From: Chiloscyllium plagiosum
Lineage: Eukaryota
NCBI RefSeq assembly: GCF_004010195.1
Contig: NC_057756.1
Coordinates: 7,817,676-7,862,004 of the forward strand
Reading direction: 5' to 3'
DNA: 44,329 nucleotides
Made by a program: the position numbers and the translations under genes. Shown piece by piece: positions 47 to 36,552 of the stretch. The notes beneath the pieces are model-generated. The model was not told the origin of the DNA, ran no database searches, and worked only from the letters and a program-made list of their open reading frames with translations. How positions within the stretch are numbered: the first letter of the stretch is position 1; each line of letters starts with the position of its first letter.

Positions 47-3000
47 GTGAGACTACTGTTAGATTCATTCATTGTTACAGGAACCATTGGCACTGCCTTG
101 TTCCTTCTCCGGATTTCATAAAGCCCCCCTCATTCCACGCTCCAATGTTATTCACAGTCTGATTTTCCTTTATCCTTTCCTGCTATTCCCCTTCCCTATC
201 ACTTTACATTTACCCGGACTAATGCACCTAACTTGCACATTCGTGGACAATTTAGTTTGGCCAATTCACCTGAACCTGCACATCTTTGGATTGTGGGAGG
301 AAACCCGAGCACCTGGAGGAAAGACACGGGGAGAATGTGCAAACTCCACACAGACATTCGCCTGAGGCTGGAATCGAACTCGGGTCCCTAGTGCTGTGAT
401 GCAGCAATGCTAAGCACTGAGCCACCGTGCTGCCAATTTCTCTGACAACTGTTGCTGAGACAAAGATAGTTCCTCATTTCTAGGTCCTTACTCATCTGTC
501 TAGTTCACTCTGACTGCACTTAACACTCCCTTTTAACTCCAATTTTTCCCAGTCTTTATCTAAGCCACTCACTTATCTTGCTCTGCGTTCAGCTGAATCT
601 GAGCATCCTCGGCTATACCCACATCTCAAAAGCTGTTACCCTCCTCTCTCCACTTTCTTCAGAGTCTAACCCTCACATCCATCACATACAATCCTCCACG
701 TTAGTGACTATACCTGACATTTGCTCAACTTCGGGCTGTTTTCAGATGTTGAGACTGAAGTCACAGGCCATGCTGTGGCTTTTCTAAGCTAAATTTCAGT
801 CCTGGATGTAATTTGGATGTTTATCATTGAACCAAATATTGGAATGTGTCCACTTTCTCTATCACAATGCACCCAATCATGATGTCTCCATTGCCATTCA
901 GAGCCATTATATTGACCGTCACCACATTCATGTTCAGTCCAAATGTCTCCTTGCCTTTTGTCTGGGTCCATCAAACCCTCCAGTACCTCCTTTGTTCTGT
1001 TTGTGTGTGTGGTGTCATCCGCAGACCAGTGATTCCCCAGCCATGTCATTAGAAACCGAAGAATGTCCTGAGAGACTCTGAGATTTACATTGTTTGTGGC
1101 AGGAATGTGGATGTGTGTAAACACAGGCACAAATACTTCAGCACTCTTTCCTCTTTTAAGACACTTTCTAAATTAAACCTTTGGGTGGTGCTTTCAGTCA
1201 GTGACCAAAGGTCTCCTTTTGTGGCTCAGGATAACATTTTGCCTGAAGGTGGTGAAAATTGAGTGAGAGAATTCCAAAGCTTCAGGCTGTACCTGATCGG
1301 CATGGACGAGTTGGACCAAAAGGCCTGCTTCCATGCTGTACATCTCGATGATTCTATGCAGGCAATTGAAGGTGGAGCCATAAATATCAGAAAACACTCA
1401 AGATGCCGGAACAGAGATCTCAGAACGTTGTGGGCCATGGGGATTACCTGCTGATTCTCCTCTGCTCTTGTTCCAGATCCCCCACGGGAGACCACAGTGT
1501 CCATCAGTGGAGCCTCAGCTGGGATCAGAGAGGGACACAACGTCACATTAATCTGTTCCAGTCAAAGTGTCCCACCGATATTGCATTACACGTGGTTCAG
1601 GATGGAAGGTAACACCAGCATCCAGTTAAACACAAGCAGCCAGATTCTCTCCTTCACTCCAGTCACACGTGGGAATGATGCAGGTTTCTACTGCACAGTC
1701 ACAAGTCCATTGGGTAACAGCAGCTCCAATATGACCCACCTGAATGTGGAATGTAAGCATTTTACTCTGTCTGTCTCTTCTTTAAACTCCGTGATCGTCT
1801 GTCTGGGGAAGCTTACACACTGTAGTTTAGTATAACCTCCTCGCTGCTGTAACCTGTCCCTCACTGAGGTAATAGTGATACTAGGATAGGTGACCAGCTT
1901 GGCTGCTAAGGAACATCATAAATGAGGAGAGACTGGGGCATGGAGGATTAGGGAGGAAATTTCAGAAATTTGACTCCTGGGCAGGTGAAGATATGGTCAC
2001 GAATGGAGGGGCGATTGGGAAGGTTCAAGGTGCCAGAGTTGGAGGACGGTAGAGATCTTGGAGGGTTGTAGGGACTGGATGAGCTCACAGATTTAGGAAG
2101 AGGTGTAGGGTTGGAGGAAGTTACAGAGAAAAGAAGTGGGCAGGGAAAGATTTTAAAGGAAGGATGGGAATTATCATTTGGTGTTCCCAGACTGAGCGTC
2201 AATGTTGCTCAGTTAATGACAGAGCATAATTATTTAATCAAATTCAGTGCAACTTGGGACATGGCAGTAGAGTTTTTGATTAGCTGAAGTTTATGGAACA
2301 TGACAGATGAGAGCATTGAGAAACTTAAGTTTGGAGTGAAGCGAGGCCTTGAGAAAGACTTTAGTGTACAGGGTGTAACTTGACGAATTGTTGTCATTCC
2401 CTCCTCAGATGGTCCGGAGATTTCCTGGGAGTCGGAATGTGCTCAGAGGGCAGAGGGGATCACCTGCGCCTGTGTGGCCAACTCCAATCCTCCTGGAGAC
2501 CTGACCTGGCACCTGCCCCATGCCAACCTCAGCGGAAACCAAACACACGGAGGTTTTGTGTCGCAGCAGCTCAGAGTGGGGCATCTGGTGATGGGTTCGC
2601 TGATCCTGAAGGGAGACCAGGATGAAGAGAAAGTGATGGCATCCTGCTCGATTCGAAACCCACATGGAAAAGCCACACACAACATGTATCTTTGGGTCAG
2701 AGGTGAGAGGTTTGACCCACAATCGATCTCTGCCTGGTTAGTTATACTCGAGACTCGAGAATCCCCTTCCTCTCCCCTCACCACCTCCTTTGTATTGTGC
2801 TTTTCCGCTGGCCTCTGACCAACATGTCCCCGTGTGCCAGTGACAACACTGGATAAAGTTTGAGTCAGGGCGTTTTGGGGAGGAAGTCAGGAAATGCTTT
2901 CTTCACAAAGTGAGGTGGAAATCTGGAACTCTCATCAACATATCCCACCCTCACCCACACCCCCCAAAAAAAAAGCCTTAATTGAAAATACAGGCAGACA

Positions 3001-6000
3001 ATGCAGCAGGGGGTGGTGTGGGGGCAGGGAGTAGGGGAGACTGGTTGAGGATGATGTCCAGCCTTTGGGTGGGTGTCTCATCACAGACTGCAGGTGGGTG
3101 GTGGGGAGGTGGTTAGTGGGGGGTGTTAATGTGGCAGGACAATTGGAGCTAGACGTCAGGCTAGCAGCAAGGTAGCATTGGGGCCTTTATCGGGACTAGG
3201 CTGGAGGAATTCAGACCATTGGCAGTTTGGGTACTGGGTCCCATCCCAATGGTTCAGGCCAGCGGTGAGTTAAGGTGAATCATTTTGAGTTGGGAGTTGT
3301 GTCTGGATTGGGTCGAGTGGGAGTCAGTCTGTTTATTGGGGGAGGAGGAGAAGAATGGCATTGGGTTGTTGGCGAGTGAGAAGGTGCTTGTTCAGAGGAG
3401 GAATGATTGTCAGATGTCTGGGAAATGTAAGGGTACAGTGAGGTGAACTCAGGGATTATGTGGTCTGTTTGGGCTTGTGGGATCAGTTTATCTGGATGTT
3501 AGACTAGGCTTTCAATTGTCTGAACATAAAAAAAGTGGTGACCTCTGAAGCCTCTGACTTGAATGGGCTTTGTCAAGGCAATCCAGATGCAGGGCAGCTA
3601 CCTACCAGAATCTCCAATTTCCTGGACAATTCCCACGGAGGCAGCTGCTTGTGGGATTCTGCAGGGTGCTGACACACAACGCCAGCCTACGGTGCTCTGA
3701 CAACTCACTGTACATAAGAACATCCAGACCAATGTAAATACAAATGATACATAGATTACATCCAGAATCATAGTCATAGAGACAGACATGTTGGACCAAA
3801 CCGGCCATGCCGACCAGATATCCCAACCCAATCTAGTCTTGGACAAATATATTGCTCACATTATGACAGAATATGTTTACCTATGTGTGATGATTGCTTG
3901 ATTGGAGGTAACATAACTTCTGATTTATGCATAACAAGATCCCACAAATAGCAACACGATAATGAACTGATGATTGATTATTTTACTGAGTTTGCTTTGA
4001 TACAAAGACAGAGATCATGAAGTGGGTCATTGATAGCCCATTACTGAAGGAAACCCAATGTTTTACTCCAGTCTGTGCGTATGTGATTACAGTTTCAAAC
4101 TCCAATGTGGTTACCTCTTAACTGCTCTCCTCTCTCAGCTGGTGTGGTTCAAGAAAAAGATACCCCACAACCCTTCAAGCGGCAATGGAGGTGTATTAAG
4201 TGGCAACAGTGCTTGGAGTATATTCTGAAAAATGGAGTGCATTGCTTCCAATGATCCATCAGAGCATCATTCAAGTGTGATAATTAATGGCTGTTTTTAC
4301 AGATAGAGACTCCAGTAAATGGACAGTAGGACTGGTCGTGATTGGAATCATGTTGACTGTTTTTCTGGCTGGAATCTTAATCATGCTGAGTGTCAAAAAG
4401 TAAGTGTAAATGCTTCATTCAATTTTACTCTCAACATTTGCTTCCATTTTCATTCCTTCAGTTGATAACTGTTCCCTTGAGGTGAAGTACCAGACACTAC
4501 TTCTCTAATTGGTCCTCTTTCCCCAAAATGTAGAGCACTTCATTGTTGTGTGTGCAGGTGAATAGCTCTGAGTTGTTGTGATCTGGAACGTGCTGCCCGA
4601 TAGGGAGATAAAAGCACGTTCAACAGAAATGTCCAAATATGTAACTGACTCTCTGACATACATTAACCACATTGTGATATTGTGTTATTGCAGGAGAAAG
4701 ACAGCAACTGAGGAGACAGCTTCAAAGACCAGTGACATTGCATTGACTGACCGTCGAGTCTCTGTGAAACACCAGGTACAGAAGCTGTTTACACTCACTC
4801 CAAAGCTTTAAGCTCAGTGTTTCGACAATGCAACATGTTGCAACTAACAAATCCAAGTTAAAAATCACACAACACCGGGTTATAGTCCAACAGGTTTAAT
4901 TGGAAGCACACTAGCTTTCGGAGCAACGCTCCTTCATCAGGTGGCAGTGGAGGGCTCAATCCTAACACACAGAATTTATTGCAAAAATTTACAGTGGGAG
5001 GTAACTGCAATTATACATTGAAAAATTTTCAATATATAATTTCAGTTACATCACACTGTAAATTTTTGCTATAAATTCTGTGTGTTAGGATTGAGCCCTC
5101 CACTACCACCTGATGAAAGAGCGTCGCTCCGAAAGCTAGTGTGCTTCCAATTAAACCTGTTGAACTATAACCTAGTGTTGTGTGATTTTTAACTTTGTAC
5201 ACCCCAGTCCAACACCAGCATCTCTAAAACAAATCCAAGGATCTTCTCTGCACCAGCGTCACCTTTTTGAAACTGCCCAGGAGTGATGGGACTTTGCACG
5301 GAAGAGAGATAAGGTTAAATCCCTGCAAAACGGAGTTAGAAACAAAGAGATGGGTGTGAAGGTTGTGTGCAGTGAACATGGTTGAATTGGCAACATGCCA
5401 ATGATTACCCATGGATTTGGAGATAGTGAGAACTGCCGATGCTGGAGAATCAGAGTGAACAGAGAGTGCAGCTGGAAAAAGCACAGCAGGTCAAGCAGTA
5501 TCAGAGGAGGATGGGAGTTGATGTTTCAAGTTAGATGCTTTCATTAGGAGTAGCTCAGCGGGCAGCACTCTCACCTTCCTTTTCTCTGAGTCAGAAGGTC
5601 TTGGGTTTAATAACCAACTACACAAATTTAAACATAATCTGACAGCACTGTCACTCTGGGGTGTTAGTACCAATGGGGTAGCACACTATTGGAGGGTCAG
5701 TCCCAAGGGAGTGCCACTGACCCTGTTCTGTCATACAGTCATTCTACTCTCAATGTGCACTGCTTTCTCTTTACTCATGCTGCCAGATCTGCTGAGTTTG
5801 TCCAACAGTTTCTTTTGTTGTTATTTTCAAATTTCCAGCATTTGCAGTTCTTCTTTTGTGCAAAAATTGGCTCATGCCACCTGTTTATTTTATTGCTGCT
5901 TGTGAGACTTTTCTGTGCACAAACTGGTGCTGCACATCTTACATTACAACAGCAATACACTTCAAAACATGGCTGTGAGGTATTTTGGAACATGTGAGGG

Positions 6001-8935
6001 AAGAAGAGAGCTCAAATCCAAATTTGAGAGTCAAACTATGCTATCTCAGCGGTGAGAAAGGGTCAAGACNNNNNNNNNNNNNNNNNNNNNNNNNNNNNNN
6101 NNNNNNNNNNNNNNNNNNNNNNNNNNNNNNNNNNNNNNNNNNNNNNNNNNNNNNNNNNNNNNNNNNNNNNNNNNNNNNNNNNNNNNNNNNNNNNNNNATT
6201 ACATCCACTGAACTATGAATACCATATAAAAGGTTGTGCAATCATTTAACACAAATGTCCCAGAAAATTTCAGAACATCTTGTGTTTCCAATTCTGTGAT
6301 GGAACTACATACTGTCAGAGGTGCCATCTTTCAAATGATATATTAAACTGCTCTGTCTGTCCTCAGGGGGATATTAAAAGTTCCCACAGCCATTATTTGG
6401 AAGAGAAACAGTGAGCTGTTCTCAGTTCTTGGAACCTATCATTATCTCTCTCAAACAGAACAGCATTAAAAAAAAAATGTGAAGATGTGAGTTATTCCAA
6501 CACAGCTGTTGAGAAATTTAAAGTCATAGAGTCATAGAGATGTACAGCATGGAAACAGACCCTTCGGTCCAACCTGTCCATGCCGACCAGATATCCCAAC
6601 CCAATCTAGTCCCACCCGTCAGTGCCCAGCCTATATCCTTCCAAACCTTTCTATTCATATACCCATCTAAATGCCTCTTAAATGTTGCAATTGTACCAGC
6701 CTCCACCACTTCCTCTGGCAGCTCATTCCATACATGTATCACCCACTGTGTGAAAAAGTTGTCCCTTAGGTCTCTTTTATATCTTTCCCCTCTCACCCTA
6801 AACCTATGCCCTCTAGTTCTGGACTCCCCCACCCAGGGAAAATACATTGTCTGTTTATCCTATCCACATCCCTCATAATTTTGTAAACCTCTATAAGGTC
6901 ACCCCTCAGCCTCCGACGCTCCAGGCAAAACAGCCACAGCCTGATCAGCCTCTCCCTGTAGCTCAAATCCTCCAACCCTGGCAACATCCTTGTAAATCTT
7001 TTCTGAACCCTTTCAAGTTTCACAATAGCTTTCTGATAGGAAGGAGACTAGAATTGCACACAATATTCCAACAGTGGCCTAACCAATGTCCTGTACAGCC
7101 GCAACATGACCTCCCAACTCCTGTACTCAATACTCTGACCAATAAAGGAAAGTATACCAAACACCTTCTTCACTATCTTATCTACCTGTGACTCCACGTT
7201 CAAGGAGCTATAAACATGCACTTCAAGGTCTCTTTGTTCAGCAACACTCCCTAGGACCTCACCATTAAGTGTATAAGTCCTGCTAAGATTTGCTTTCCCA
7301 AAATGCAGCACCTCGCATTTATCTGAATTAAACTCCATCTGCCACTTCTCAGCCCATTGGCCCATCTGGTCCAGATCCTGTTGTAATCTGAGGTAACCCT
7401 CTTCGCTGTCCACTACACCTCCAATTTTGGTGTTATCTGCAAACTTACTAACTATACCTCTTATGCTCACATCCAAATCATTTATATAAATGATGAAAAG
7501 TAGTGGACCCAGCACGATCCTTGTGGCACACCACTAGTCACAGGCCTCCAGTCTGAAGAATAACCCTCCACCATCACCCTCTGTCTTCTATCTTTCAGCC
7601 CGTTCTGTATCCAAATGGCTCGTTCTCTCTGTATTCCATGAGATCTAACCTTGTTACCCATCTTCCACAGGGAACCTTGTTGAATGCCTTACTAAAGACC
7701 ATATAGATCACATCTACCGCTCTGCCCTCATTTGTTACTTTTTCAAAAAACTCAATCAAGTTTGTGAGACATGATTTCCCATTCACAAAGCCATGTTGAC
7801 TATCCCTAATCTGTCCTTGCCTTTCCAAATACATGTATCTCCTGTCCCTCAGGATTCCCTCCAACAACTTGCCCACCACTGAGGTCACTCTGGTCTATAG
7901 TTCCCTGGCTTGTCCTTACCACCCTTCTTAAACAGTACCACATTAACTAACCTCCAGTCTTCTGGCACCTCACGCTCAATGATATAAATATCTCAGCAAG
8001 GGGCCCACCAATCACTTCCCGAGCTTCCCACAGAGTTCCAGGGTACTCCTGATCGGTCCTGGGGATTTTTATCTACGTTCATGCATTTCAAGACATCCAG
8101 CACTTCATCGTCTGTAATATTGACATTTTTCAAGATGTCACCATGTATTTCCCTACATTTTTTTTATCTTCCATGTCCTCTTCCACAGTAAACACTGATG
8201 CAAAATGCTTGCTTATTATTTCCTCCATTTTATGTGGCTCCACACAAAGGCCGCCTTGCTGATCTTTGAGGGGCCTTATTCTCTCCCTAGTTACCCTTTT
8301 GTCCTTAATGTATTTGTAAAAACCCTTTGGATTCTCCTTGATTCTATTTGCCAAAGCTATCTCATGTCCCCTTTTTGCCCTCCTGATTTCCCTCTTCAGT
8401 ATACTCCTACTGCCTTTATACTCTTCTCAGGATTGCCTTGTGCAAATTGGCTGCTGTGTTCCCTAGATTACATCAATGACTACAGTTCAATAAATAAAAT
8501 GCTTCAGTGGCTGAGGAGAACTTGGGATGTTCAGTCTGTGTGAACAAGGAACTTTAGTCTTCAAAGTAAGAAAGAGCAGGATAAACTCCAAATAAACCCA
8601 CAGAGCTACAGTTGGCTCTCAAATGGTTGTGCAATAATTTAAAACTACCCCTGCTGATAAATGATGTGAGAACATCCTCTGTTTCCATTTCTCTACAGGG
8701 TTCACAGGACATGAAAGTTAAGGACCCTCTGGACACAATTAGAGAGGGAGATACACCATCTCCTCAGGATGTCTTTGACAGTCCAGTGGGAGGAGATGCT
8801 GGACATGAGAACCCCAACAGAACTGAAGATGTTCTCTACGCCAACATCAACTTTTCAAAGCTGCCCAAAGGTGACGGGACAGTGCACAGAGGCGAGGACA
8901 CGGAATATGCAAAGATCAGATTCCAACCAAACTGA
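1..8935 (+). CDS. Gene A: Siglec/MAG-like inhibitory Ig-superfamily receptor, 5'-partial, spliced (exons 1-46, 1477-1752, 2409-2702, 4303-4399, 4694-4775, 8699-8935)
   Basis: All introns are GT..AG with consistent phases (1,1,1,2,0). The joined translation gives C2-set Ig domains, a TM and a tail with ITIM VLYANI and ITSM-like TEYAKI. An extra exon could be hidden in the N gap. Confidence 0.9.
200..434 (-). mobile_element. HE1-type tRNA-derived V-SINE
   Basis: Minus strand starts GGCAGCACGGTGGCTCAGTG (A box)...GAGTTCGATTCC (B box), followed by the V-domain TGTGTGGAGTTTGCACATTCTCCCCGTG. Confidence 0.85.
1477..1752 (+). CDS. Gene A exon: C2-set Ig domain (YPPRETTVS...VTLICSS...YTWF...DAGFYCTV...LNVE)
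   Basis: Acceptor ctcttgttccag, donor T|GTAAGC; Ig Cys, Trp and DxGxYxC motifs. Confidence 0.92.
1885..2370 (-). mobile_element. Degenerate L2-like LINE fragment
   Basis: Purine-rich plus strand resembling the reverse 3' portion of L2; no intact ORF. Confidence 0.45.
2409..2702 (+). CDS. Gene A exon: membrane-proximal Ig domain of MAG-domain-5/Siglec type (YGPEISWESECAQRAEGITCACVANSNPP...ASCSIRNPHG)
   Basis: Acceptor ccctcctcag, donor G|GTGAGA. The ESxC...CxCVxxSNP pattern resembles MAG domain 5. Confidence 0.9.
3766..3838 (-). mobile_element. Short CR1 3'-tail fragment
   Basis: tcatagtcatagag...ccatgccgaccagatatcccaacccaatctagtc, the same tail as at 6523 and 43797. Confidence 0.7.
4303..4399 (+). 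CDS. Gene A transmembrane exon (DRDSSKWTVGLVVIGIMLTVFLAGILIMLSVKK)
   Basis: Acceptor ggctgtttttacag, donor AA|GTAAGT; phase 1 to 2; uncharged hydrophobic span. Confidence 0.9.
4694..4775 (+). CDS. Gene A cytoplasmic exon (RKTATEETASKTSDIALTDRRVSVKHQ)
   Basis: Acceptor gttattgcag, donor CAG|GTACAG; phase 2 to 0 fits both neighbours. Confidence 0.82.
4855..5225. mobile_element. Palindromic Penelope-like terminal-repeat insertion with hammerhead cores
   Basis: About 170-bp inverted arms (4855-5024 and 5026-5195) plus an unpaired tail; TSD aacaaatccaag at 4846-4857 and 5228-5239. Confidence 0.8.
5107..5141 (+). ncRNA. Minimal hammerhead ribozyme-like motif (second copy on - strand at about 4910-4943)
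   Basis: cac CTGATGA aagagc gtc gctcc GAAA gc TA gtg: conserved core, stem II, palindromic AGCT stem III and a 3-bp stem I. Confidence 0.6.
5548..6000 (+). mobile_element. Degenerate Deu-domain SINE (SacSINE1-like) with an inserted Penelope-terminus fragment
   Basis: tRNA-like head gtagctcagcgggcagcactctc...tctgagtcagaagg; tail acattacaacagcaatacacttcaaaa. Confidence 0.55.
6070..6197. other. Assembly gap (128 N)
   Basis: Run of N. Confidence 1.
6523..8428 (-). mobile_element. CR1 LINE, 5'-truncated and frameshifted (RT domain), nested in a Deu-SINE remnant
   Basis: ORF pieces LGPLLFIIYINDL..SKFADNTK, QHGF..KSCLTNLIEFF and RPLLEYCVQF; (ctctatga)n-type tail. The SINE halves lie at about 6310-6510 and 8430-8550. 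Confidence 0.92.
8699..8935 (+). CDS. Gene A terminal exon with ITIM (VLYANI) and ITSM-like (TEYAKI) motifs
   Basis: Acceptor tttccatttctctacag, phase 0; reads ...DVLYANINFSKL...EDTEYAKIRFQPN*. Confidence 0.9.
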   Translation, partial: GSQDMKVKDPLDTIREGDTPSPQDVFDSPVGGDAGHENPNRTEDVLYANINFSKLPKGDGTVHRGEDTEYAKIRFQPN

Positions 8936-22099: not shown

Positions 22100-22800
22100 G
22101 AGTGCATGCTGCACTATTAAAGTGTCAGGACTCAGAGACTGTTGCACTGTCCGAGCATCAGTACTGAGGGAATGTTGCACTTTTCAGAGGATCAGTACTG
22201 AGGGAGTGCAGCACTGTTGGAGGGTTAATACAAAAGGATTGCTGCACTGTCTGAGGGTAATACTGAGGGACTGATGTACTGCTGGACCATCAGTGCTGAG
22301 GGAGTGCCAACATGTTGGAGGATCACTACTGAGGGAGTCCTGCATTGCTGGAGAGTCAAAACTGGGGGGGTGCCACAATGTCAAAGGATCAGTATTGAGG
22401 CAGTTCCATACTGTTGAAGGGTCAGTAATGAGGGAGTGCTGCACTGTCAGAGGGTCAGTACTGAGGGAGTACCACAGTCAGAGGGTCAGCGTTGAAGGTA
22501 TGCTGCACTATCAGAGGGCCAGTACTGAAGGAGCGCTGCATTGTCAGAGGATCAGTGCTGAGGGAGTGCCACACTGCCGGAGAGTCAGTGCTGAGGGAGT
22601 GCTACACTGCCGGAGAGTCAGTGCTGAGGGAACTGCCGAATTGTCAAAGGGTCAATGCTGAGGGAGTGCTGCATTGTCAGAGGGTCAATGTTGAATGATC
22701 GGCGCACTGTCAGAGGGTCAGTGCTGAGGGAGCGCCACAATATCGGAGGGTCTGTGCTGAGGGAACTGCCGAATTGTCAAAGGGTCAGTGCTGAGGGAGG
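22100..22800. repeat. 33-bp minisatellite (gtcagtactgagggagtgctgcactgtcagagg)n, Deu-SINE-derived
   Basis: About 20 degenerate units, continuing directly into a Deu-SINE body and tail (22805-23066). Confidence 0.9.
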
Positions 22801-22804
22801 GCTG

Positions 22805-23066
22805 CTCAAGTGGATGTGGAAAATCCCATGGCGATTTTTGGAAAAGGAGCAGGTGTTCATCTTCCCAATGTCCTGCAACCAACTTCTATTTCCCAATCAG
22901 CATCCATAAAAGCAAACGTTATGTCTCACAATCGCATGCTTTTTTTATGGAATCTTGCTGTGTCAATCCTACATTGCAAAGATGGCAGCACTTCAAAACT
23001 ACTTAATTCACTGAAGCGCTTTTGAAAAGTTCTGCAGTGGTCCAAGGTGTTACACAAATGTAAGTC
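22805..23066 (+). mobile_element. Deu-domain SINE 3' part
   Basis: aagtggatgtggaaaatcccatggc...cctacattgcaaa..cacttcaaaactactt...tgaagcgctttt. Confidence 0.65.
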
Positions 23067-23813
23067 TGCCTTGGTTAGAATTGGGCAAGGGAATATGATT
23101 TAATACTGGTGGATAAGAGTTTGATCAAAGAGATTGGGTTTTCTGAGCATCTGAAGCAGGCGGTTTAAGGAGTGAAGGGATGTTTTTGGAGGGGAACGGT
23201 GTGGGTGGGAGACTTCAAAGAGAGAGGGGACCAGTTACTGAAGAGAGTGAACCATCACAACGGTTGGCTAACATGAGAGCCAGGAGGGAATGTTGGGTGA
23301 TGAACGTTTAGTGGGAACTGGACAGAGGGAAAAGGAGGCAGTTGTCATTGACAGAGTGAGCTTGGAGAGAGCATGAGAGGTGATAGAACAGAAAGTGGGC
23401 AGAAATGACAGTTCTGGGCTAGGGCGGAGGTGAGGATTCAAGGAACGTTGACCCAGTGGATGAGTGCAAGGAAGGGAACTGGCGCAGAGTTGAATACGTC
23501 TGTTCAGTCTTGGCAGAAGTTTGATCAAGATCGAAAGACATTGACAATCACAACGGACAGAAGGACATTCCTTGCTGTTGGAGATAATGTAGAAAAAGGA
23601 TGTTTAAAATTAAATCCAGACCAACACATCTTGGACACCTCATCACTCAACTCTGACACATCACCTCCGAGAAACGCCAGCACATGATATTGAGAAATTT
23701 CAAAGTAGTTCTTGGGAATGATTCCTGTGGATTTTAGAAAATAAGTTGAAGTTTAAAAATATTCCCTCAATCTGTGTTGTCCCCATGCTGAACATTTCTC
23801 AATCTTATTTAGT

Positions 23814-23921
23814 TTAGATATTCGCATACACAGCCTCGTCATCATAATTGCAGTTTGCGTAGAGGTCATCTTTTTGGTGCACATGGACATTATGATTTGA
23901 TTTCACTTCTTCAACTTTCCT
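23814..23921 (-). CDS. Gene B terminal exon (RKVEEVKSNHNVHVHQKDDLYANCNYDDEAVYANI*)
   Basis: Strong acceptor tttccatttttattgcag, phase 0; two YAN motifs, then TAA. Confidence 0.85.
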   Translation of the reverse strand, partial: RKVEEVKSNHNVHVHQKDDLYANCNYDDEAVYANI

Positions 23922-26900
23922 CTGCAATAAAAATGGAAATGAGCAGAACAATAATCAGAGTGATCAATGTTAGCATTATTCACCTGAATAGAAATTTTAC
24001 CCCCAATAGATCCATTAATAGTAAGGTCCTAGGACATGTTGCTGAACAAAGAGACTTTGGAGTGCAGGTTCATAGCTCCCTGAAAGTAGAGTCGCAGGTA
24101 GATAGGATAGTGAAGAAGGCGTTTGGTATGCTCTCCTTTATTGGTCAGAGTGCTGAGTTTCGTAGTTGGGAGGTCATGCTGCAGCTGTCCAGGACCATTG
24201 ATTAGGCCACTGTTGGAATATTGCATACAATTTTGGTCTCCTTCCTATCAGAAGGATGGTGTGAAATTTGAAAGGGTTCAGAAAATTGTACAAGGATGTT
24301 GCCAAAGTTGGAGGATTTGAGCAGCAGGGAAAGGCTGAACAGGCTGGTGCTATTTTCCCTGGTGCTGAGGGGTGATCTTACAGATGTTTATAAAATCATG
24401 GATAGGACAAATAGACTAGGTCTTTTTTGCTGGGGTGGGACAGCCCATAACTAGAGGTCATAGGTTTAGGGTGAGAGGGGAAAGATGTAAAAGGGACCTA
24501 AGGTGCAACTTTTTCACGCTGAGCGTGGTGCGTGTATGGAATGATCTACCAGAGGAAGTGGTGGAGGCTGCTACAATTACAATATTTAAAAGGCATCTGG
24601 ATGGGTACATGAATAGAAAGAGTTTAGAGGCATATGGGCCAAGTGCTGGAAAATGGGATTAATTTAGGATTCCTGGTCAGCATGGATGAGTTGGACTGAA
24701 GGGTCTGTTTCTGTGCTGTACATCTCTATAACTCTATGACTCAAATTATCTGAACAGAGTCGTGTTTGATTATTGATACTGAACTGTGTGGGATTTGATT
24801 ATTGGCACTGAATAGTGTGAGGTTTGACTATCGATACTGAATGGTGGGAGTTGTGCAGTTTTTGAGTTCAGGGGTTTGGTTGTATAAGTGATTGCAGAGA
24901 CACGACTGGACCAGACATGTCAGTATTGGAACCGGTGGAGGAGGTGTGCCTGTGCATTTGGTGGTATGTTGCTCACCTTGTGACTTCTCAAAGCCCAGTC
25001 AAGCTCACAGCTTTCATAAGTAGGACATTGACATGCACTGACACCATATTTAGCTTCATTTTCTTGTTTCATTTTCTTTCTCTCCTGGATCATAACCTGC
25101 TGTACAGTGTGCTAGGCAAAACATCTTTTCAGTTTGACTCCTGATCTTGTGAGTGGAGCAAACCACTCATGGGTTTTCAGCAGAGTAGCAGTGTGAGAAG
25201 ACGAGCTTCTCATATTGTTCATACTGTTCTTTGGGCCAGCTTCCCCACCCAGAGTATTCTGAATTAGACTGGGCACCGCACAAGGCAGTGGTCCTTTGAT
25301 GAATGTTCACAATGAACAGATGATCGGCGAGCTGTTATCATGCTGGGTAGTTTTGCCTTGTCTCCTTTTAGCAACAATGAACTTCTGTACTACAAAACAA
25401 TCCTTTTATTATCTTAATCATTTTGTTCAGCCTTTAATGTTCTAGTCTCGAGGAACCTCAAGCTTTGCTTAGCTTGTGCAGCCTACCCTCAGAATTTGAT
25501 TAAAAGATGTTCTATACTGCAGAGTTGAGCCTTCTACACAGATCTTAACACTAAGCAAAATTATTTCAAAGGTATCAATCATTGGAGTCTGCTTTATAAA
25601 GTCATCAACATCAATACAGGAAAATGTTGGTTGAGGAATTGAATTCCGACAAGTACTTTACTTACCCTGGACTTGTCAGACTGCTCCCTTGCGGTGTCTG
25701 TTTGGTTTCTTTCTGTGCTTTTCACTCTGTGTATTTAATTAGAAATAGTCACTATGGGTCAGATCGGGGAGTAGGGAAGAGTATGAAGGTACGTTTTCTG
25801 AAATGCAGGACCTTCATCTTTCATTGCTAGTAAATCATTAACTCTTTGTGTCCTGTTTCCTAACCATATTGCAGTGTTAGGTGGGCAATTATTGACATTG
25901 AGATTTACTTCACTGCTCCCTCCAGAGGACAAAGAGGGAACGTCTGCAGGACCAGATGTTACTCCACGCTCTTTGAAACAGTGAGAAACTGAACAAAATG
26001 TGCAAGACAATGAAAACGAGAATGAGATGGAGAGCATCAGTAGATAAAGGAGAGGGAAATGAGAAGGTGAAAATGGAAAGGGATGCATCCACTGATGACA
26101 GAGAGGCTTGCATTTATATAAATGCAAAACGCTGCTGATGCTGGAGATCTGAAATGAAAACAGCAAATACTGGAAAATCTCAGCAGGTCTGGGAGAGTCT
26201 GTGGATAGAGAAACAGAGTTAATTTTGGGAGTTCAATATGGCTCTTCATCTCGTTCAGGTCAGTAGTTGGGACAATCTATGAGTGACTGTCAAAGAAGAG
26301 TTGTATTGGACTGTAAAGGTTAACTCTGTTTCCCTCTCCACAGCTGCAGCCAGACTTGCTGAGTTTCTCCAGTATTCCCGGTCTACAGTTAGATGGCTCC
26401 TTTCACAACCTGAGGAGATCAAAACACATTTTAAAGCCAGATTACTAAACATTGACTGGAAATCAAAGCACTTCAGTATCTCATCAGTATTTTTGAAATG
26501 TGAAAGGTGCTGAGGAGCTGCTGTGAGTTCAAAGGCAGCAAATGAACCTTTTGCACTTACTTTCTCACACACTTGAAGATGAAGAACGCACTCAGTCCAA
26601 CAATCAAAATGATTCCAGCTCCAAGCAATCCTGCTTTCCAAGCACTAAAATTTCGACCTGGAGAAACAGCCAATGAATTTAGATTTTGCATAGTTTTAGT
26701 GGTACAGACTTGATCGGCTGAAGAGCCTTTTTTGTACTCAGAGACTCATGGAATCATACAGTAGAGGACCTTTGGTCGATCATGTTTATACCACTACCCG
26801 CATTTGCTCCACTTTACTGCACGAGGCCTATTCCCTTGAATGCATGAGTTCATCCAAGTATGTTTTGCCTTTCAACTTCAAAACGATAGCCCCTTGATAT

Positions 26901-29900: not shown

Positions 29901-32900
29901 TTTGATAAAGTTCCAAATAAGAGGCTAGGGTATAAAAATCAAAGTATGTTGGACTGGTGGTAATATGGATTGAGAACTGGTTAGCAGACAGGAAATAGAG
30001 ATTCGGAATAAATCAGTCATTTTCAGAAGAAAGGCAGTGACATACAGGATATCATAGGGAGCAGTGCCTAGGTCCTAGCTATTCACTACATATCAGCAAT
30101 GATTTGGATGAGGGAATTAAATGCAATATTTCCACAACACAATCCATCAACAGTAACTAGTTGGGGTTATGAGGTGGTGAGGAGGATGCAAAGAGCTTTC
30201 AAGATGATTTAGACAAATTGAGTGTGTGAACGAATGTATGACAGATGCAGTAGAATGTGAATACGGGCGAAGTTGTCAACTCCAATCAGAAAAACAGAAT
30301 GGCAGAGTATTACTTAAACAGATGGAAAGGTTAATGTAAAAAGAGACATGGGTGTCCTTGTGCACTGGGCATTGAAAGCAAGCATGCAGGTGCAGCAAGC
30401 AATGGAGAAAGGAAGTGGTCCGGTGGCATACAGTGCAAGAAGATTTGAAAACAGAGCAAAGAAGTCTTACTGCAGCTGCACAGGGCTTTTGTGAGGCCAG
30501 ACCTGGAATATTGTGCACAGTTTTGGTCCCCCTACCTCAGAAAAGATATACCTATAGAGAAGGTTCACAAGACTGGATTTCTGGGATGGCAGGTTTGTTG
30601 TTTGAGTTTTTCGAAGAATGAGAGGGAATCTCGATGACATATATACAAATCTGGCAGGTCTAGATAGACTGGATGCAGGGATGATATTTCCTTTTATCAG
30701 GAATCCAGAACAAGGGGTCACGGATTCAAATTGTGGCTATTTTGGACTGAAACATGAAGAGACTTCTTTGATCAGAGGTGAACCTACAGCAATTGTCTGC
30801 CACAGAAAGCTATGAATCCAAGCCACTGAATATGTTTCAGAAAAAAGTAGATTTCCAAAGGCTAAAGGTGTCATCGTGTATGATGGGAATGGGAGTATGA
30901 GATAGAGGGTCAACCAAAAATATGTTGAACAGCAAAGCAGATTTGATGGGCTGAATTGCTTATTACTCATCTTATTCTCCATGTTTCCACATTATCCTTT
31001 CTTGGAACTATATCACAATTCCTTCAGTGTTGCTGAGTCAAAATCTTGGATCTTGTTTCCAAACATTACAGTATGATAACCCCAACCCTCTGAACCACAG
31101 TCATGTCTAGAAGGTAGCTAAGGGCTAGGTTCTCAAGGAGCAATTAGGGATGGTCAAGAAATGTCAGTGCTACCAGGAATGCACACATCACGTAGACCAA
31201 TAAAAGCTGATAAAGTCTGAGTACACTCACTTTTTACAGAGATGGTTATGGAGTCCTCCACTGTTCCATGTTCATTCTCTGCCACACACTGATAGTCTCC
31301 AGTCTCCCTGTACGTAATGTGAGGAATCTCCAACCACAGCTCATTGCTGGAACGTGTTCTGTTCACTGTGACATTAAGATGTCTCCATATCAGGTTGGAA
31401 GCAGGGGAGCTCTTGACAGAGCAGATTATCACTGCAGAATGCCCTTCAATTACACTGATCGATGAATCTTTAATAACATGAATAGAAGTGATCACAAGAT
31501 TCCGTGGTGTGTCTACAAACAAAGAAAGAATTTGTTGTGAGCTACCAGCGCACAGCAAGACTCCCTGCTCATCTCTCTCTCTGTCTAATGTCATTATGCA
31601 TTAGCAGTAACATTTCTGCAATCTAAGTTTCTGTGTGACATTTCTGGTGGACACTACCTGTCTAAATCATCACGCTGCATTTCACTCTCACCCCAGTGGA
31701 CAAAAGATGAAGAAAGTAAGTAAGGTACACATCCTCAGAATGTCACAGTTGAAGGCGGGGGATGGTTTGAGAGGGGAGGGATTGTGTGTACATGTGTGTG
31801 TGTCCCAGTGACACTGAGGGAAAAGCAATATATTTCCAACTCAAGATGATGAGTGGTTTGGAGTGGAATTTGCAGGAGATTCTCATGTACATGTAGCCCC
31901 TGTTCTGTGTGGTCATAGGTTTTGAAGGTGCTGTCTATGAACCTTCCCAGATTTCTGCAGTGCCTCTTGTCAATAGTACACATCGCTGCTACTGAATATT
32001 CATGGTGGAGGGAGTGAATGCGCCATAGAGTCATATATTATGGAAACAGACTCTTCGCTACAATTCTTCTGTGCCAGCCAGACATCCCAAACTAAACGCG
32101 TCCCATTTGCCAGCTTGTGGCCCATATTCCTCGAAAGCCCTCCGATATATACACCCATCCACATGTCTTTTAAATGCTGTCATTGTACCTGCCTCCACCA
32201 TTTCCTCTGACAACTTGTTTTGTACATGCATCTTCTTTTCCATGAAAAAGTTACCCTTTAGGTCCTTCTCAAATATTTCGTCTCTCACCTTAAGACTATG
32301 CCATTTCAGTTTTGGACTCCCAAATCTTGGGGAAAAGACCTTGGCTATCTGTGCCCCTCATGATTTTATCAGCCTCCGTAAGGTCACTTCTCAGCCTCCA
32401 ATGCTCCAGGGAGAAAAAACCCAGTCCATTCAGCCTCTCCCTATCTTTCAAGCCCCCAATCCTGGCAACATCCCTATAAGTCTTCTCTGTACCTTCTCAA
32501 GTTTAACAACATCCTTCCAATAGAAGGGCCACCAGATTTGTATGCTGTATTCTAAACATGGGTTTGTGGATGTGGTGCCAGTCAGGCAGCTGCTTTGTCC
32601 TGGGCAGATTTTTGAGTGTTATTGAAGTTGCATCCATCCAGGCAAGTGAGGAGTATTCCATCACACTCCTGACTTGTGCCTTGTGAATGGTGGACAGAAT
32701 TTGGGAAAACAGGAGGTGAGTTACTCACACCAGGATTCTTAACCTATGACCTGCTCTTGGAGCCACTATATTTATACGGTTTGTTCAGTTATCTTTCCAA
32801 TCAATGGTAAGCCCCAAGGATGTTGATCGTAGGCGATTCAGCGATGTTGGCACCAGGTAATGTCAAGGGATACTGGTAGATTCTCCCTTTCTGCAGATGG

Positions 32901-35900
32901 TAATTGTATGGCATGAATAGCACTAGACAAATGTCAGACTAAACCTAGATTTTGTCCAAACCCTGTTACATTCACATATGGATTGCTTAAGTATCTGTGC
33001 AACAGACCTTATGATGGAGGGATGGCCATTGATGAACCAGCTGAAGATGGTTGGGCTGAGGACATTTCCTTGAGGAACTCCAGCAGAGATGTCCTGGAGC
33101 TAAGATAACTGACCTCCAACAACCATAACCATCTTCCTCTGTGCCAGGTATGAATCCAACCAATAGCAAGTTTTCTGCTGATTCCTATTAATTCCAGTTT
33201 TGCTCAGGATCCTTGAGCCATATTTAGTCAAGTGTGGGCCTGACATTAAAGGCAACCATCTCAATCTCTGAAATTCCGATGATTTGGTTATGTTTGAGCC
33301 AAGGCTGGATGAAGTGAGGAATACAGTTCCCCTAGTGCACATCAAGACTCCACACTCTTCTGTCTATTTAAGCTGCCATGCTGTATTTACACTGTCCCAT
33401 CAGTGAAAACACTCAACATTGTGGAAGAAAGGAAGTGCCTTTCACTGTCTAAGGTAGTTGCCAAACAATGTGGCAGCCAGTAAAATGTCTTTGATCAATG
33501 GAGTTTTGAGAGATAAATCTACAATTTTCCATAGAGAAGGCTGCTCAATTATTACAGGTCCTTCTAATCTATAACATTTGCATTCCTTCAACACAGATTC
33601 AGAGTGAACACTGACACTGTACTGTACAAATGAGAGGGGGCAGATAATTCACAAGTGGGTGTGTGTCTCTGTGTCTTCATGTATATTTCTGACAGGAATT
33701 TAGAAAGTGTGTACACTCACGATCCACTGTGATGGTTATGGAGCCCTCCACTGATCCATGTTCATTCTCTGCCACGCACTGATAGTCTCCAGTCTCCCTG
33801 TACGTAATGTGAGGAATCTCCAACCACAGCTCATTGCTGGAACTTGTTCTGTTCACTGTGACATTAAGATGTCTCCACGTCAGGTTAGAAGCTGGCAAGC
33901 TCTTGACAGAGCAGATTATCACTGCAGAATTCCCCTCAATTATATTGATTAATGAATCTTTCATCACATTAAGGGATGCAACTGAGAGATTCCGTGGTGG
34001 ATCTAAAACAATTAAAACAAATTCAATTACAATTACTGTGAAGCAGTGAAAAGCAGTGACAATGTGAAAGGAGTGATATCAATGCAGCTTCCTTTATCAG
34101 AAAACAGATCATCTAGACACAAGCTTCAATTCAGCACTGAGGGCGTGCCACTTTGTCAGATGTTCAGTCCTGAGGGAATACCATGCTGTCTGAGGTTCAG
34201 TAATAAGGGAGTGTCACACTTTCAAGATGGTCAGTGTTGAGGGAGTGCTGCACTGTCAGAGGGTCAGTACTGAGGGAGTGCCGCACTGTCAGAGGGTCAG
34301 TACTGAGGGAGTGCTGCTTTGTTGGAGTGTCAGTAATGAGGGAGTACTGCACTGTTGGAGGATTAGTACTAAGGGAGTACTGTCAAAGTGTCAGTAGTGA
34401 GATAGTACTGCAGCATTAGAGGATTAGCTCTGAGGGCTTGCTGTATTGCCAGAGAGTTAGTACTGTGCGAGCTTTGCTCTTTCAGAGGACACTTACATTG
34501 AACTGTCAGTACGAAGGTCTGCTCTGATGAAACAGTTGGATATCTCACTCTGCAGGTGAGAGTTTGTCCCTGGTGTCTGGGTGATGGGATCAGGCTCAGA
34601 ACAGAAGTATAGGTCAGAGTGACACCATTCTGAGTTACAGTGTTTGAGACTGATCCAGGTACGGCAGTGGGAGTGTCCCAGGCTAAGACAGGAGCTGTTC
34701 CATTGCACGTTGTGTTGAAGGTGCACCTTAGGTTCACACGCTTTTCCGCGATAATTTCCACAGGGATTATTATGGGTTTCTCGGTGAAATCTAAGATAGA
34801 GAGAATGCATCATTTTAAATAAATAAAATGGGAATCATCAGTTCAAAAAGAATCAAATTCCCATGAAAGAAAGCACTTTTACAAGCACTCATGATATGAG
34901 ATCAGAGGTTAAAATAATGAAGGAATTCCTTTTAAACAGGATTAGAGATAGAGGCAGTCAGTAACCAGATAGAACTGATACATTTAATCATTCAATATAT
35001 TTAATCATTGATATCGAAGTCTGTATTAGAGGTTCCTTCTGGACAGAATTCTTAGAATCCTGACAGTGTGGAAGCAAGGCATCCTGTCCATCGAGACCAC
35101 ACCAAATCTCCAAAAAGCATCCCACCCAGATCCACATACCAATCCCCGTAACCCTGCATTTCCCATGGCTAATCCAGCCTGCACACCTCTGGACACTATG
35201 GGCAATTTCGCATGGCCAATCCACCTAACCTACATATCTTAGGACTGTGGGAGGAAACTGGAGCACCCATAGGAAACATACACAGTTAGAGAGAATGTGC
35301 AAACTCCACAGACAGTCAACCGAGGCTAGTATTGAACCCGAGTCCCTGGTGTTGTGAGGAAGCAGTGCTAACTGCTGAGCCAAGGTGCTGTCCTGAATTG
35401 AAAGCTACCACCAGTTAATTGATAATACATACAGTGTTTCAATAAGCTGTGCTTTCTGTGGAATGCTGTGGAGGAGAGGCTCGAGTGTTCCATTGATCCA
35501 AGAGTGACACTGTCAGAGTTCTGAACTCCTGTCAGTGTCACCCATGATGGTAAGGTCAGAGAGAAGAAACTAGACAAAGCACAATCCAAAAACCTGTTGT
35601 CAATGGCGAGCCAGGTGGAAGATACCTTTTTTTTATTAGATTACTTACAGCATGGAAACAGGCCCTTTGACCCAACAAGTCCACACCGACAAGCAACCCA
35701 CCCAGACCCATTCCCCTACATTTACCCCTTCACTAACATGATGGGCAATTTAGCATGGCCAATTCACCTAACCTGCACATTTTTGGACTGTGGGAGGAAA
35801 CTGGAGCACCCGGAGGAAACCCACGCAGACACAGGGATAATGTGCAAACTCCACAGACAGTCGCCCAAGGTTGCAATCAAACCCAGGTCCCTGGTCCTGT

Positions 35901-36552
35901 GAGGCAGCAGTGCTAACCACTGTGCCACTGTGCCACCCATACCTGTGTGATATCAACGGCTATGAGACAAATATCAGCTGCAGCGGTAGGGAGATTCATC
36001 ATTAACATTCACCTGCTGATTTCTGATGAATTGCAAAGGCATTCCTACATTGTTCAACACATACCTAACCCAGATTTTCATCAGTGTCCAATCATGCTCA
36101 TTCCCAAGTGATTGCCATGACAGTAATAAACTGTGTCTGTATAATTTCCTACTGAGAGCTGGGTGTACGTTATTGAGTAAATGTAACTCAGCACTTACCA
36201 GAAATGTGAAGGTTGGTTGCAGGAAAGTAGCTGTAACTATTCACATTGTCAAATTCTATTCTCAAGTGATAAGATCCTGCATCTTCCCGTATGATATTGT
36301 TTATAATCAGGGAACAGTCTCCATCTTTCAGGTGTCCAGACAGCCAGGTCCGAGTGCGGAACCGTTGCAACATTTTCTCATGATGCTCGGAATGAAAAGC
36401 TACGGAATCTTTCCCTTGGTACCAGATTCCAATTCGTGTTTGGCTTGCTAGATGTGAAGGATAACTGTAATGACATGGAATCCGAGCACAGGAACCTTCC
36501 TGCGCTGTCACCTGAGGTGGAATGTTGATTTTCCAGTTTTGGGCCAGTCCAG
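23814..36552 (-). CDS. Gene B: Siglec-like receptor V-C2-C2-C2-TM-cytoplasmic tail, spliced, leader exon not found
   Basis: Seven GT..AG-bounded exons in consistent phase (1,1,1,1,2,0); Siglec V-set signature, TM and terminal tyrosine motifs. Confidence 0.9.
24015..24742 (+). mobile_element. CR1 3' fragment
   Basis: QRDFGVQVHSSLK..RPLLEYCIQFWSP..TRGH..WNDLP; tail ctctataactctatgactc. Confidence 0.9.
24977..25111 (-). CDS. Possible additional or alternative gene B cytoplasmic exon (HTVQQVMIQERKKMKQENEAKYGVSACQCPTYESCELDWALRSHK)
   Basis: 135 nt, open in phase 0 to 0. Strong donor AAG|GTGAGC but weak acceptor (ttttgcctag; alternative in-frame AGs nearby). Confidence 0.35.
25666..25726 (-). CDS. 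Gene B cytoplasmic exon (VKSTERNQTDTAREQSDKSR)
   Basis: Acceptor tacacag, donor AGG|GTAAGT; phase 2 to 0, as in gene A. Confidence 0.75.
26561..26657 (-). CDS. Gene B transmembrane exon (SRNFSAWKAGLLGAGIILIVGLSAFFIFKCVRK)
   Basis: Acceptor tggctgtttctccag, donor AA|GTAAGT. It is 97 nt and phase 1 to 2, exactly like the gene A TM exon. Confidence 0.9.
28060..29745 (+). mobile_element. CR1 remnant with Penelope insertion
   Basis: YRTLVRPLLQYCLQFCSP..LERVHQR..; CR1 tail. Confidence 0.88.
28621..28990. mobile_element. Palindromic Penelope-terminus insertion
   Basis: Inverted arms; TSD caagatttatata at 28608-28620 and 28991-29003; core CTGAAGAAGGGCTTATGCCCGAAACGTC at 28864. Confidence 0.85.
29820..30985 (+). 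mobile_element. Old CR1 remnant
   Basis: Decayed RT motifs and RPGILCTVLVP-type C-terminal region. Confidence 0.7.
31231..31512 (-). CDS. Gene B exon: C2-set domain 4, a duplicate of domain 3
   Basis: Same 282-nt length as D3 with a near-identical core; acceptor tttgtttgtag, donor A|GTGAGT. Confidence 0.93.
32025..32560 (-). mobile_element. CR1 3' fragment
   Basis: DLKGNFF..EEMVEAGTMTAFKRHVD. Confidence 0.85.
33721..34002 (-). CDS. Gene B exon: C2-set domain 3 (YPPRNLSV...IICSVKSLPASNLTW...ETGDYQCVAENEHG)
   Basis: Ig motifs; acceptor tgttttag, donor C|GTGAGT. Confidence 0.93.
34130..34450. repeat. Second array of the 33-bp minisatellite, in the gene B D2-D3 intron
   Basis: cactgtcagagggtcagtactgagggagtg units. 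Confidence 0.85.
34497..34790 (-). CDS. Gene B exon: Siglec domain 2 (DFTEKP...LRCTFNTTCNGTAPVLAW...TSVLSLIPSPRHQGQTLTCRV)
   Basis: Extra Cys for the D1-D2 disulfide; TSVL..P...HQGxxLTCxV motif. Acceptor tctatcttag, donor T|GTAAGT. Confidence 0.95.
35060..35392 (-). mobile_element. HE1-type V-SINE
   Basis: As for the other copies. Confidence 0.8.
35635..35937 (-). mobile_element. HE1-type V-SINE
   Basis: As for the other copies; tail gtaagtaatctaa on - strand. Confidence 0.85.
36199..36552 (-). CDS. Gene B exon: Siglec V-set sialic-acid-binding domain
   Basis: QNWKI...QEGSCARIPC...GIWY...GDCSLII...EDAGSYHLRIEF...SYSY, with Siglec Cys placement and F-strand Arg. Acceptor ctctccccag, donor G|GTAAGT. 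Confidence 0.95.

Follow-up and report, generated by a model that had tools for sequence, protein, structure and literature searches.

A spliced terminal exon encoding a double-YxN tail motif at ITAM spacing in a Siglec-like receptor gene of the shark Chiloscyllium plagiosum

Several tail motifs close to the one reported here are described in extracts of published work. Grb2 reads the residue at position pY+2 (PMC12470777), and conservation of the activating ITT motif is confined to its YxN core (PMC4263166). The YENV-Grb2 site of CD22 is inhibitory through PMCA, and the Grb2 sites of Siglec-10 and Siglec-G lie beside ITIMs (PMC6286995). YxN is conserved in most CEACAMs of Xenopus that carry an ITAM or ITAM-like motif (PMC5112662), and mammalian activating Siglecs combine a charged transmembrane (TM) residue with DAP12 (PMC13358205, PMC2832619). 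A 2020 paper states that CD33-related Siglecs are absent from fish genomes, in an extract that makes no mention of sharks (PMC7226832). A search of the full-text literature, judged by titles and the beginnings of abstracts and with subscription reviews on Siglec evolution outside its scope, returned no paper on shark Siglec tails or on the motif. The double YxN at ITAM spacing is apparently undescribed; the exon itself has already been modelled by NCBI.

Here we describe the terminal coding exon (cyt3) of a Siglec-like receptor gene in a stretch of 44,329 nucleotides of the Chiloscyllium plagiosum genome (GCF_004010195.1, contig NC_057756.1, positions 7,817,676 to 7,862,004), which is called the window and supplies all coordinates given without a contig name. 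The exon was identified from its translation, from spliced contigs and from the NCBI model P0002. It occupies 23814..23921 (-), follows a pyrimidine-rich AG acceptor in phase 0, and encodes 35 residues and a TAA stop codon. The full reading up to the stop is RKVEEVKSNHNVHVHQKDDLYANCNYDDEAVYANI, and its C-terminal end is DDLYANCNYDDEAVYANI. The motif YxNC-x7-YxN(I) at the C-terminus (23817..23870 (-)) consists of acidic residues, an aliphatic residue at -1, Tyr1 (23861-23859), Asn, Cys (23852-23850), a spacer, Tyr2 (23828-23826), Asn and Ile, with exactly seven residues between YANC and YANI, as originally predicted. The 3' UTR covers at least 23001..23813 (-), and contig X1 extends 277 bases further. 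A degenerate tandem repeat with repetitive open reading frames lies just downstream of it (22184-22909). Broken fragments of a LINE-type reverse transcriptase occupy 24016-24740 and many other intronic stretches, with very deep repeat coverage in all compared runs that had data.

An acid-anchored pattern of the motif had a single match in the window and was present in 1 of 100 shuffled sequences; the plain pattern YxN-x8-YxN matched twice and was seen in 17 of 100 shuffles, its second match at +21631 being in a frame without annotated exon. The pattern is weak by itself, so that splicing and conservation carry the finding. Splicing was judged from 8 of the 21 listed runs, and the RNA nature of contigs X1 to X3 is only a program's guess, none being recorded as RNA; their junctions fall at GT/AG borders. 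Contig X1, from an organism (A) about 96.5% alike, runs from the TM exon (26561-26657) through cyt1 and 24977-25083 to 23921-23001 at consecutive record positions, and contig X3 likewise joins 23921 to the exon at 24977. Contig X2, with 0 differences over 156 bases, joins 23921 directly to the exon at 25666, so cyt2 can be skipped in frame. Contig X4 covers cyt3 and ends before any junction, and the genomic-type contig X6 reads through the unspliced intron as DNA. Raw-read runs X10 (about 2% sampled) and X11 (about 6% sampled) had cover on repeats or none, and X12 left the exons without cover; these runs have no bearing on expression. In organism A the last residue of cyt3 is changed from Ile to Val and the spacer Tyr to Phe, with both motif tyrosines and the Cys kept, and X3 has one further change upstream. 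The NCBI model P0002 (XP_043539169.1) ends in cyt3 in the form that skips cyt2, which is included in models P0003 and P0004. An upstream acceptor for cyt2 at 25096 was rejected, as 25084 is used in the X1 contig and in P0003/P0004. Cyt3 is a genuine exon that is spliced in as the last one of a Siglec-like receptor gene of the shark. The 35-codon exon and its splicing to the exons at 24977 and 25666 thus agree with the original prediction, which had also called the exon hidden: it is indeed absent from the open-reading-frame track but was already part of model P0002.

The gene encodes a V-C2-C2-C2-TM protein followed by cytoplasmic exons, with AG/GT at all borders and an open frame of 527 residues without the leader, whose exon lies about 7.3 kb past the end of the window (L005:7333). 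In the Siglec-type V-set exon (36199..36552 (-)), an Arg is aligned with Arg97 of sialoadhesin, a Trp with Trp2, and a Tyr lies near Trp106; we take these to be the essential F-strand Arg and flanking aromatic residues of Siglecs. The first Ig C2-set exon (34497..34790 (-)) encodes the additional Cys that is typical of domain 2 in Siglecs, and the second C2-type exon (33721..34002 (-)) has 87% DNA identity to the third (31231..31512 (-)). The TM exon (26561..26657 (-)) encodes a hydrophobic core without charged residue and a juxtamembrane Cys. It is followed by the cytoplasmic exon cyt1 (25666..25726 (-), 61 nt) and the optional cyt2 (24977..25084 (-), 108 nt, phase 0-0), which contains a third Tyr unit, YESC, and is present in X1, X3 and P0003/P0004 and skipped in X2 and P0002. 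The 18 best PDB matches of the V domain are sialoadhesin, MAG, Siglec-5/7/8/10/15 and CD33 (best E 3e-15); Pfam V-set and C2-set_2 were matched, and Ig_CD22 stayed below its cut-off. Three Cys of the V domain align with those of sialoadhesin, and together with the extra Cys in the first C2 domain they would form disulfides predicted by alignment. With a V-set nearest to Siglecs, C2-sets, a type I TM, the Arg and aromatic residues and the extra Cys, the predicted receptor qualifies as Siglec-like, which upholds the assignment of the tail to such a protein. The NCBI label Siglec-13 is automatic.

The opposite side of the window (1478-8935 (+)) holds the 3' end of a convergent Siglec-like gene of ITIM type, whose terminal exon (8699..8935 (+)) encodes the ITIM VLYANI and a distal TEYAKI. 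Many tandem C2 exons lie upstream of it (L014, L015), and its relative P0051 has 12-13 Ig domains. In the genome that contains the gene under study (G000), the V exon was matched 14 times (12 on contig C47) and the ITIM exon nine times, and a cyt3-type tail is present in five places, namely this gene, the gene of P0035, a Trp-variant paralogue, a copy with a stop and a copy without Tyr1.

A search with the V domain yielded 71 proteins, all from sharks or rays by name. A profile of 13 tails had 14 matches among 1.84 billion representatives, 11 with the full motif, one without Tyr2 (P0084 lacks it), one ITIM-type TM match and one unrelated protein. A regular expression matched 33 of 89 proteins, which gave 25 distinct species-motif strings from 16 species (11 sharks, 5 batoids); the counts are partly circular, as part of the motif is presupposed. 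Tyr1 is followed at +2 by Asn in 23 motifs and Ser in two, and at +3 by Cys in 21, Phe in two, and Trp and Tyr in one each. The spacer has seven residues in 24 motifs and five in one, with a Tyr-to-Tyr distance of 11 in 24/25. Asn stands at +2 of Tyr2 in all 25, followed by Val (12), Ile (7), Leu (2), Met (2), Lys (1) or Thr (1, the C. punctatum orthologue). Upstream, -1 of both tyrosines is aliphatic or Met throughout (25/25), -2 of Tyr1 is Asp or Asn in 23, and -2 of Tyr2 is Ala (10), Ser (9), Pro (4), Val (1) or Leu (1). The motif is C-terminal in 24/25. Since the expression presupposes the motif, the 61 TM-bearing proteins of the 71 were rescanned for any pair of tyrosines 10-12 apart. Such a pair was present in 18, of which 16 have cyt3-type tails, one is a chance pair in an ITIM type and one is a canonical ITAM. 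In the cyt3-type tails found this way, +3 of Tyr1 is Cys in 16/16 and never Leu or Ile, and Asn occupies +2 of Tyr1 in 14/16 and of Tyr2 in 16/16. The tyrosines, the +2 Asn and the 7-residue spacer are thus common to sharks and rays; for the tyrosines and the spacing, the original prediction had demanded this of orthologues. Constancy of the spacer length is not clearly above background: by visual count, the spacer has one indel event and the 11 upstream residues about 4-5 (P 0.25-0.36). No match to the motif was obtained in bony vertebrates or chimaera, at search thresholds that a 15-residue motif on another TM would miss.

The TM is neutral in 32 of the 33 proteins with a cyt3-type tail. A Lys before it was discarded as an adaptor-pairing residue (WK in 18/33 such tails vs 5/22 ITIM types). 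A lone YxNC unit occurs in the cyt2 of P0004, P0016, P0032, P0034, P0043, P0066 and P0076, so the half-unit is able to stand as a single unit; it reads YENC in most relatives with the exon and YESC in Chiloscyllium. The exon cyt2 may have arisen long ago as a copy of the terminal exon. As a DNA-level duplication this is weak, with 40 of 1000 shuffles scoring as high, and the protein likeness in relatives was judged only by eye. According to gene models, the same tail type is also joined to a second, MAG-like ectodomain without the essential Arg (P0076, P0084, P0085). Together with P0080, four proteins have the tail motif on such an ectodomain, three of them with a different TM. The tail profile had one chance match in the PDB, and in the ESM Atlas every match of the tail (SCIMP, LST1, C1orf162, opalin) scored below 0.9 and counts as no more than a lead.

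Tail types were compared on a tree of 62 V domains, built after removal of seven P0005 rows, which look chimeric, and of one short row, and without P0020 and proteins that lack a tail. Tail type changes 13 times on this tree against a shuffled mean of 21, and starred branches require at least five of these changes; the underlying alignment is short and the bootstrap had not settled. In Heptranchias, P0061 with a cyt3-type tail and P0062 with an ITIM have V domains 97.6% identical (120/123 residues). In G000, the second V exon of the Trp-variant paralogue (C47:7964217-7964582, L028) is 96.7% identical in DNA to the V exon upstream of the ITIM neighbour (7787011-7787376, L030), with 73% and 85% in the flanks, and gene conversion between the two is likely. 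The L028 exon has an AA instead of an AG acceptor and may be skipped in frame. The V domain of the gene under study shows at most 68% identity to any other in G000, has no close ITIM twin, and belongs to a five-member carpet-shark clade (support 100/96). The alternation of cyt3-type and ITIM tails on near-identical V domains, as in paired receptors, is seen in its relatives.

Among gene models of Pristis pectinata (P0070, P0092) is a Siglec-like one with a canonical intrinsic ITAM (YxxL-x7-YxxL) and an ectodomain 97% identical to that of an ITIM-type partner. Its TM and tail differ from those of the rest of the family and, as we presume, recall DAP12 without its acidic residue; it could reflect a genuine Siglec with an ITAM or the fusion of genes in a model. 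P0070 is a candidate counter-example to the view in the original prediction that no Siglec is known to have an intrinsic ITAM. A query with the ITAM tail of the sawfish had no match in G000. Six further shark models of Siglec type (P0006, P0030, P0031, P0052, P0059, P0069) form a third class, in which the tail is very short and an Arg lies close to the beginning of the TM; they are possibly adaptor-coupled activating members.

The tail had been viewed as an ITAM whose first half-site is broken by the Cys, and the spacer is indeed within the 6-8 residues of an ITAM. However, the Leu or Ile expected at +3 of both tyrosines is absent from Tyr1 in all 25 motifs of the shark and ray relatives and present at Tyr2 in only nine. 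The Pfam ITAM model (PF02189) did not match cyt3 or nine full-length proteins with this tail at E<=10; it matched the positive control P0070 at 18.7 bits, under its cut-off of 22.2. Across G000 it had seven matches, all near-copies of one repeat-like sequence, which therefore provide no shark ITAM control. Decay of an ITAM in this species was rejected, the Cys being the conserved state in relatives. Because +3 of Tyr2 drifts while both +2 Asn hold and the Cys is conserved, Y-x-N-C-x7-Y-x-N-(V/I)-stop is, by its sequence, best regarded as a stable motif in its own right that has the spacing of an ITAM, and not as a decayed ITAM. A hemITAM is a single conserved YxxL behind an acidic patch. Such a function is unlikely here, with two conserved tyrosines, Leu at +3 of Tyr2 in 2/25, and only 9/25 if Ile is included. 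Binding of Syk by the tail as a non-canonical ITAM is a possibility to which we give limited credence. It would suit the Tyr-to-Tyr distance of 11, the mostly small or aromatic hydrophobic residues at +3, the acidic residues before Tyr1 and the canonical ITAM of the sawfish model, and an extract of PMC4810170 reports that Syk binds atypical tandem motifs. It is opposed by the residues at +3, including Thr or Lys at Tyr2 in two motifs, by the Pfam result, by a spacer constancy not above background and by the half-unit that stands alone in cyt2.

Rather less probable is an inhibitory or modulatory tail, in which Grb2 would bring SHIP1, Cbl or PMCA as in CD22, or the distal AVYANI would serve as a weak ITIM-like site for SHP-1/2. 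CD22 and Siglec-10/G are inhibitory receptors that use Grb2 sites, according to an extract of PMC6286995, so Grb2 docking leaves the polarity unfixed; the TM lacks an activating charge, and the YAN core is common to the ITIM of the neighbouring gene and its relatives. Yet the ITIM consensus (I/V/L/S at -2, L/V(I) at +3) does not fit the Asp and Ala at -2 here, nor most relatives (Ser, Val or Leu at -2 of Tyr2 in 11/25). The cluster already contains canonical ITIM paralogues, and conversion between the types suggests opposite outputs. Least probable, and in our view a poor candidate, is a tail that acts mainly in trafficking, with the terminal YxxV/I as a Yxx-hydrophobic endocytosis motif for ligand uptake. 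The C-terminal position of the motif and a hydrophobic residue at +3 of Tyr2 in 23/25 would agree with this, and the same ambiguity is noted for the ITAM-like motifs of CEACAMs in an extract of PMC2832619; the Thr and Lys variants at that position do not agree, and the invariant Asn, the conserved first Tyr-Asn-Cys and the acidic kinase-site context would be left unexplained.

The reading we prefer, with about an even chance of being correct, is that the cyt3 tail is a multivalent docking site for the Grb2 family and that its receptor belongs to the activating, ITIM-free side of a family of paired receptors. The pY-x-N core of a Grb2-family SH2 ligand (ITT-like) is present at Tyr1 in 23/25 motifs and at Tyr2 in all, and Grb2 docking fits best among the roles originally envisaged for the tail. 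It is favoured by conservation of the +2 Asn and not of Leu/Ile at +3, by the half-unit standing alone, by the preference of Grb2 for pY+2 and by the YxN core of the ITT; drift at +3 of Tyr2 fits a specificity at +2. That the polarity is activating is inferred from the absence of an ITIM and the pattern of pairing, in parallel to the CEACAMs. Once ligand is clustered through the Arg-bearing V domain, the acidic-aliphatic-Tyr sites would become substrates of a Src- or Syk-family kinase, each pYxN would then bind the SH2 domain of Grb2, GRAP or GADS, and docking would feed SOS-Ras-ERK, Gab-PI3K or Btk/Vav without an adaptor of the DAP12 type. Inclusion of cyt2 would raise the valency from two to three sites in relatives, the third having drifted to YESC here. 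Grb2 requires neither a Cys at +3 nor a fixed distance of 11 residues between the tyrosines, so this reading leaves both conserved features unexplained; an SH2 contact at +3, S-acylation or a turn constraint are candidate roles of the Cys. The Asn at +2 of the ITIM-type paralogues (YANI) means that YAN may partly reflect ancestry or kinase preference, and the Ser at +2 of Tyr1 in two relatives, the missing Tyr2 of P0084 and the lack of an ITIM twin of this gene also count against Grb2 docking in a paired receptor. A broader and distinctly speculative proposal is that sharks and rays have activating Siglecs without DAP12, in which YxNC-x7-YxNV would be an undescribed dual-use motif for Syk/ZAP-70 (by its ITAM geometry) and Grb2 (by its Asn). 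The motif would move between ectodomains, an optional exon would tune it and ITIM twins would be its counterparts, the sawfish member reaching the same end with a canonical ITAM.

By its combination of ITIM tails, a conserved double-YxN tail and converted V domains, an expanded cluster in elasmobranchs would date paired Siglec-like receptors to an early stage of jawed-vertebrate evolution and would mean an activating solution other than DAP12 with a charged TM. The motif is relevant to the limits within which an ITAM can vary and to the relation between ITAM and ITT-type motifs. Like CD22 (YENV) and Siglec-10/Siglec-G, the receptor combines a Siglec ectodomain with cytoplasmic pYxN sites for Grb2, which bind in those proteins according to an extract of PMC6286995 and are predicted here; unlike their single YxN among ITIMs, it has two or three YxN, no ITIM and a conserved Cys at +3. 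It shares the conserved YxN core with the ITT of membrane IgG/IgE and with the ITT-like DAP10 and CD28, where Grb2 is the effector (extract of PMC4263166). The ITT has one site and serves to amplify an ITAM within its complex, whereas here tandem sites at ITAM distance occur in a stand-alone receptor. With the canonical ITAM (D/E-x-x-YxxL/I-x6-8-YxxL/I) the tail has in common two tyrosines 11 apart and acidic residues upstream, and it differs in the Cys and mostly Val at +3, the Asn at +2 of both sites and the lack of a PF02189 match. Paired CEACAMs (human CEACAM1/3, those of Xenopus and the marsupial members with ITAM and YxN) likewise have an intrinsic non-ITIM Tyr tail, ectodomains shared with ITIM partners by conversion and, in activating members, a conserved YxN (extracts of PMC5112662, PMC2832619). 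They belong to another family, keep YxxL and have the motif split by introns, whereas here it lies whole in one exon. The pairs Siglec-5/14 and Siglec-11/16 also comprise ITIM and non-ITIM members with converted V domains. Unlike the mammalian activating Siglecs, with their charged TM and DAP12 (extracts of PMC13358205, PMC2832619), the shark receptor has a neutral TM and a long tail with tyrosines.
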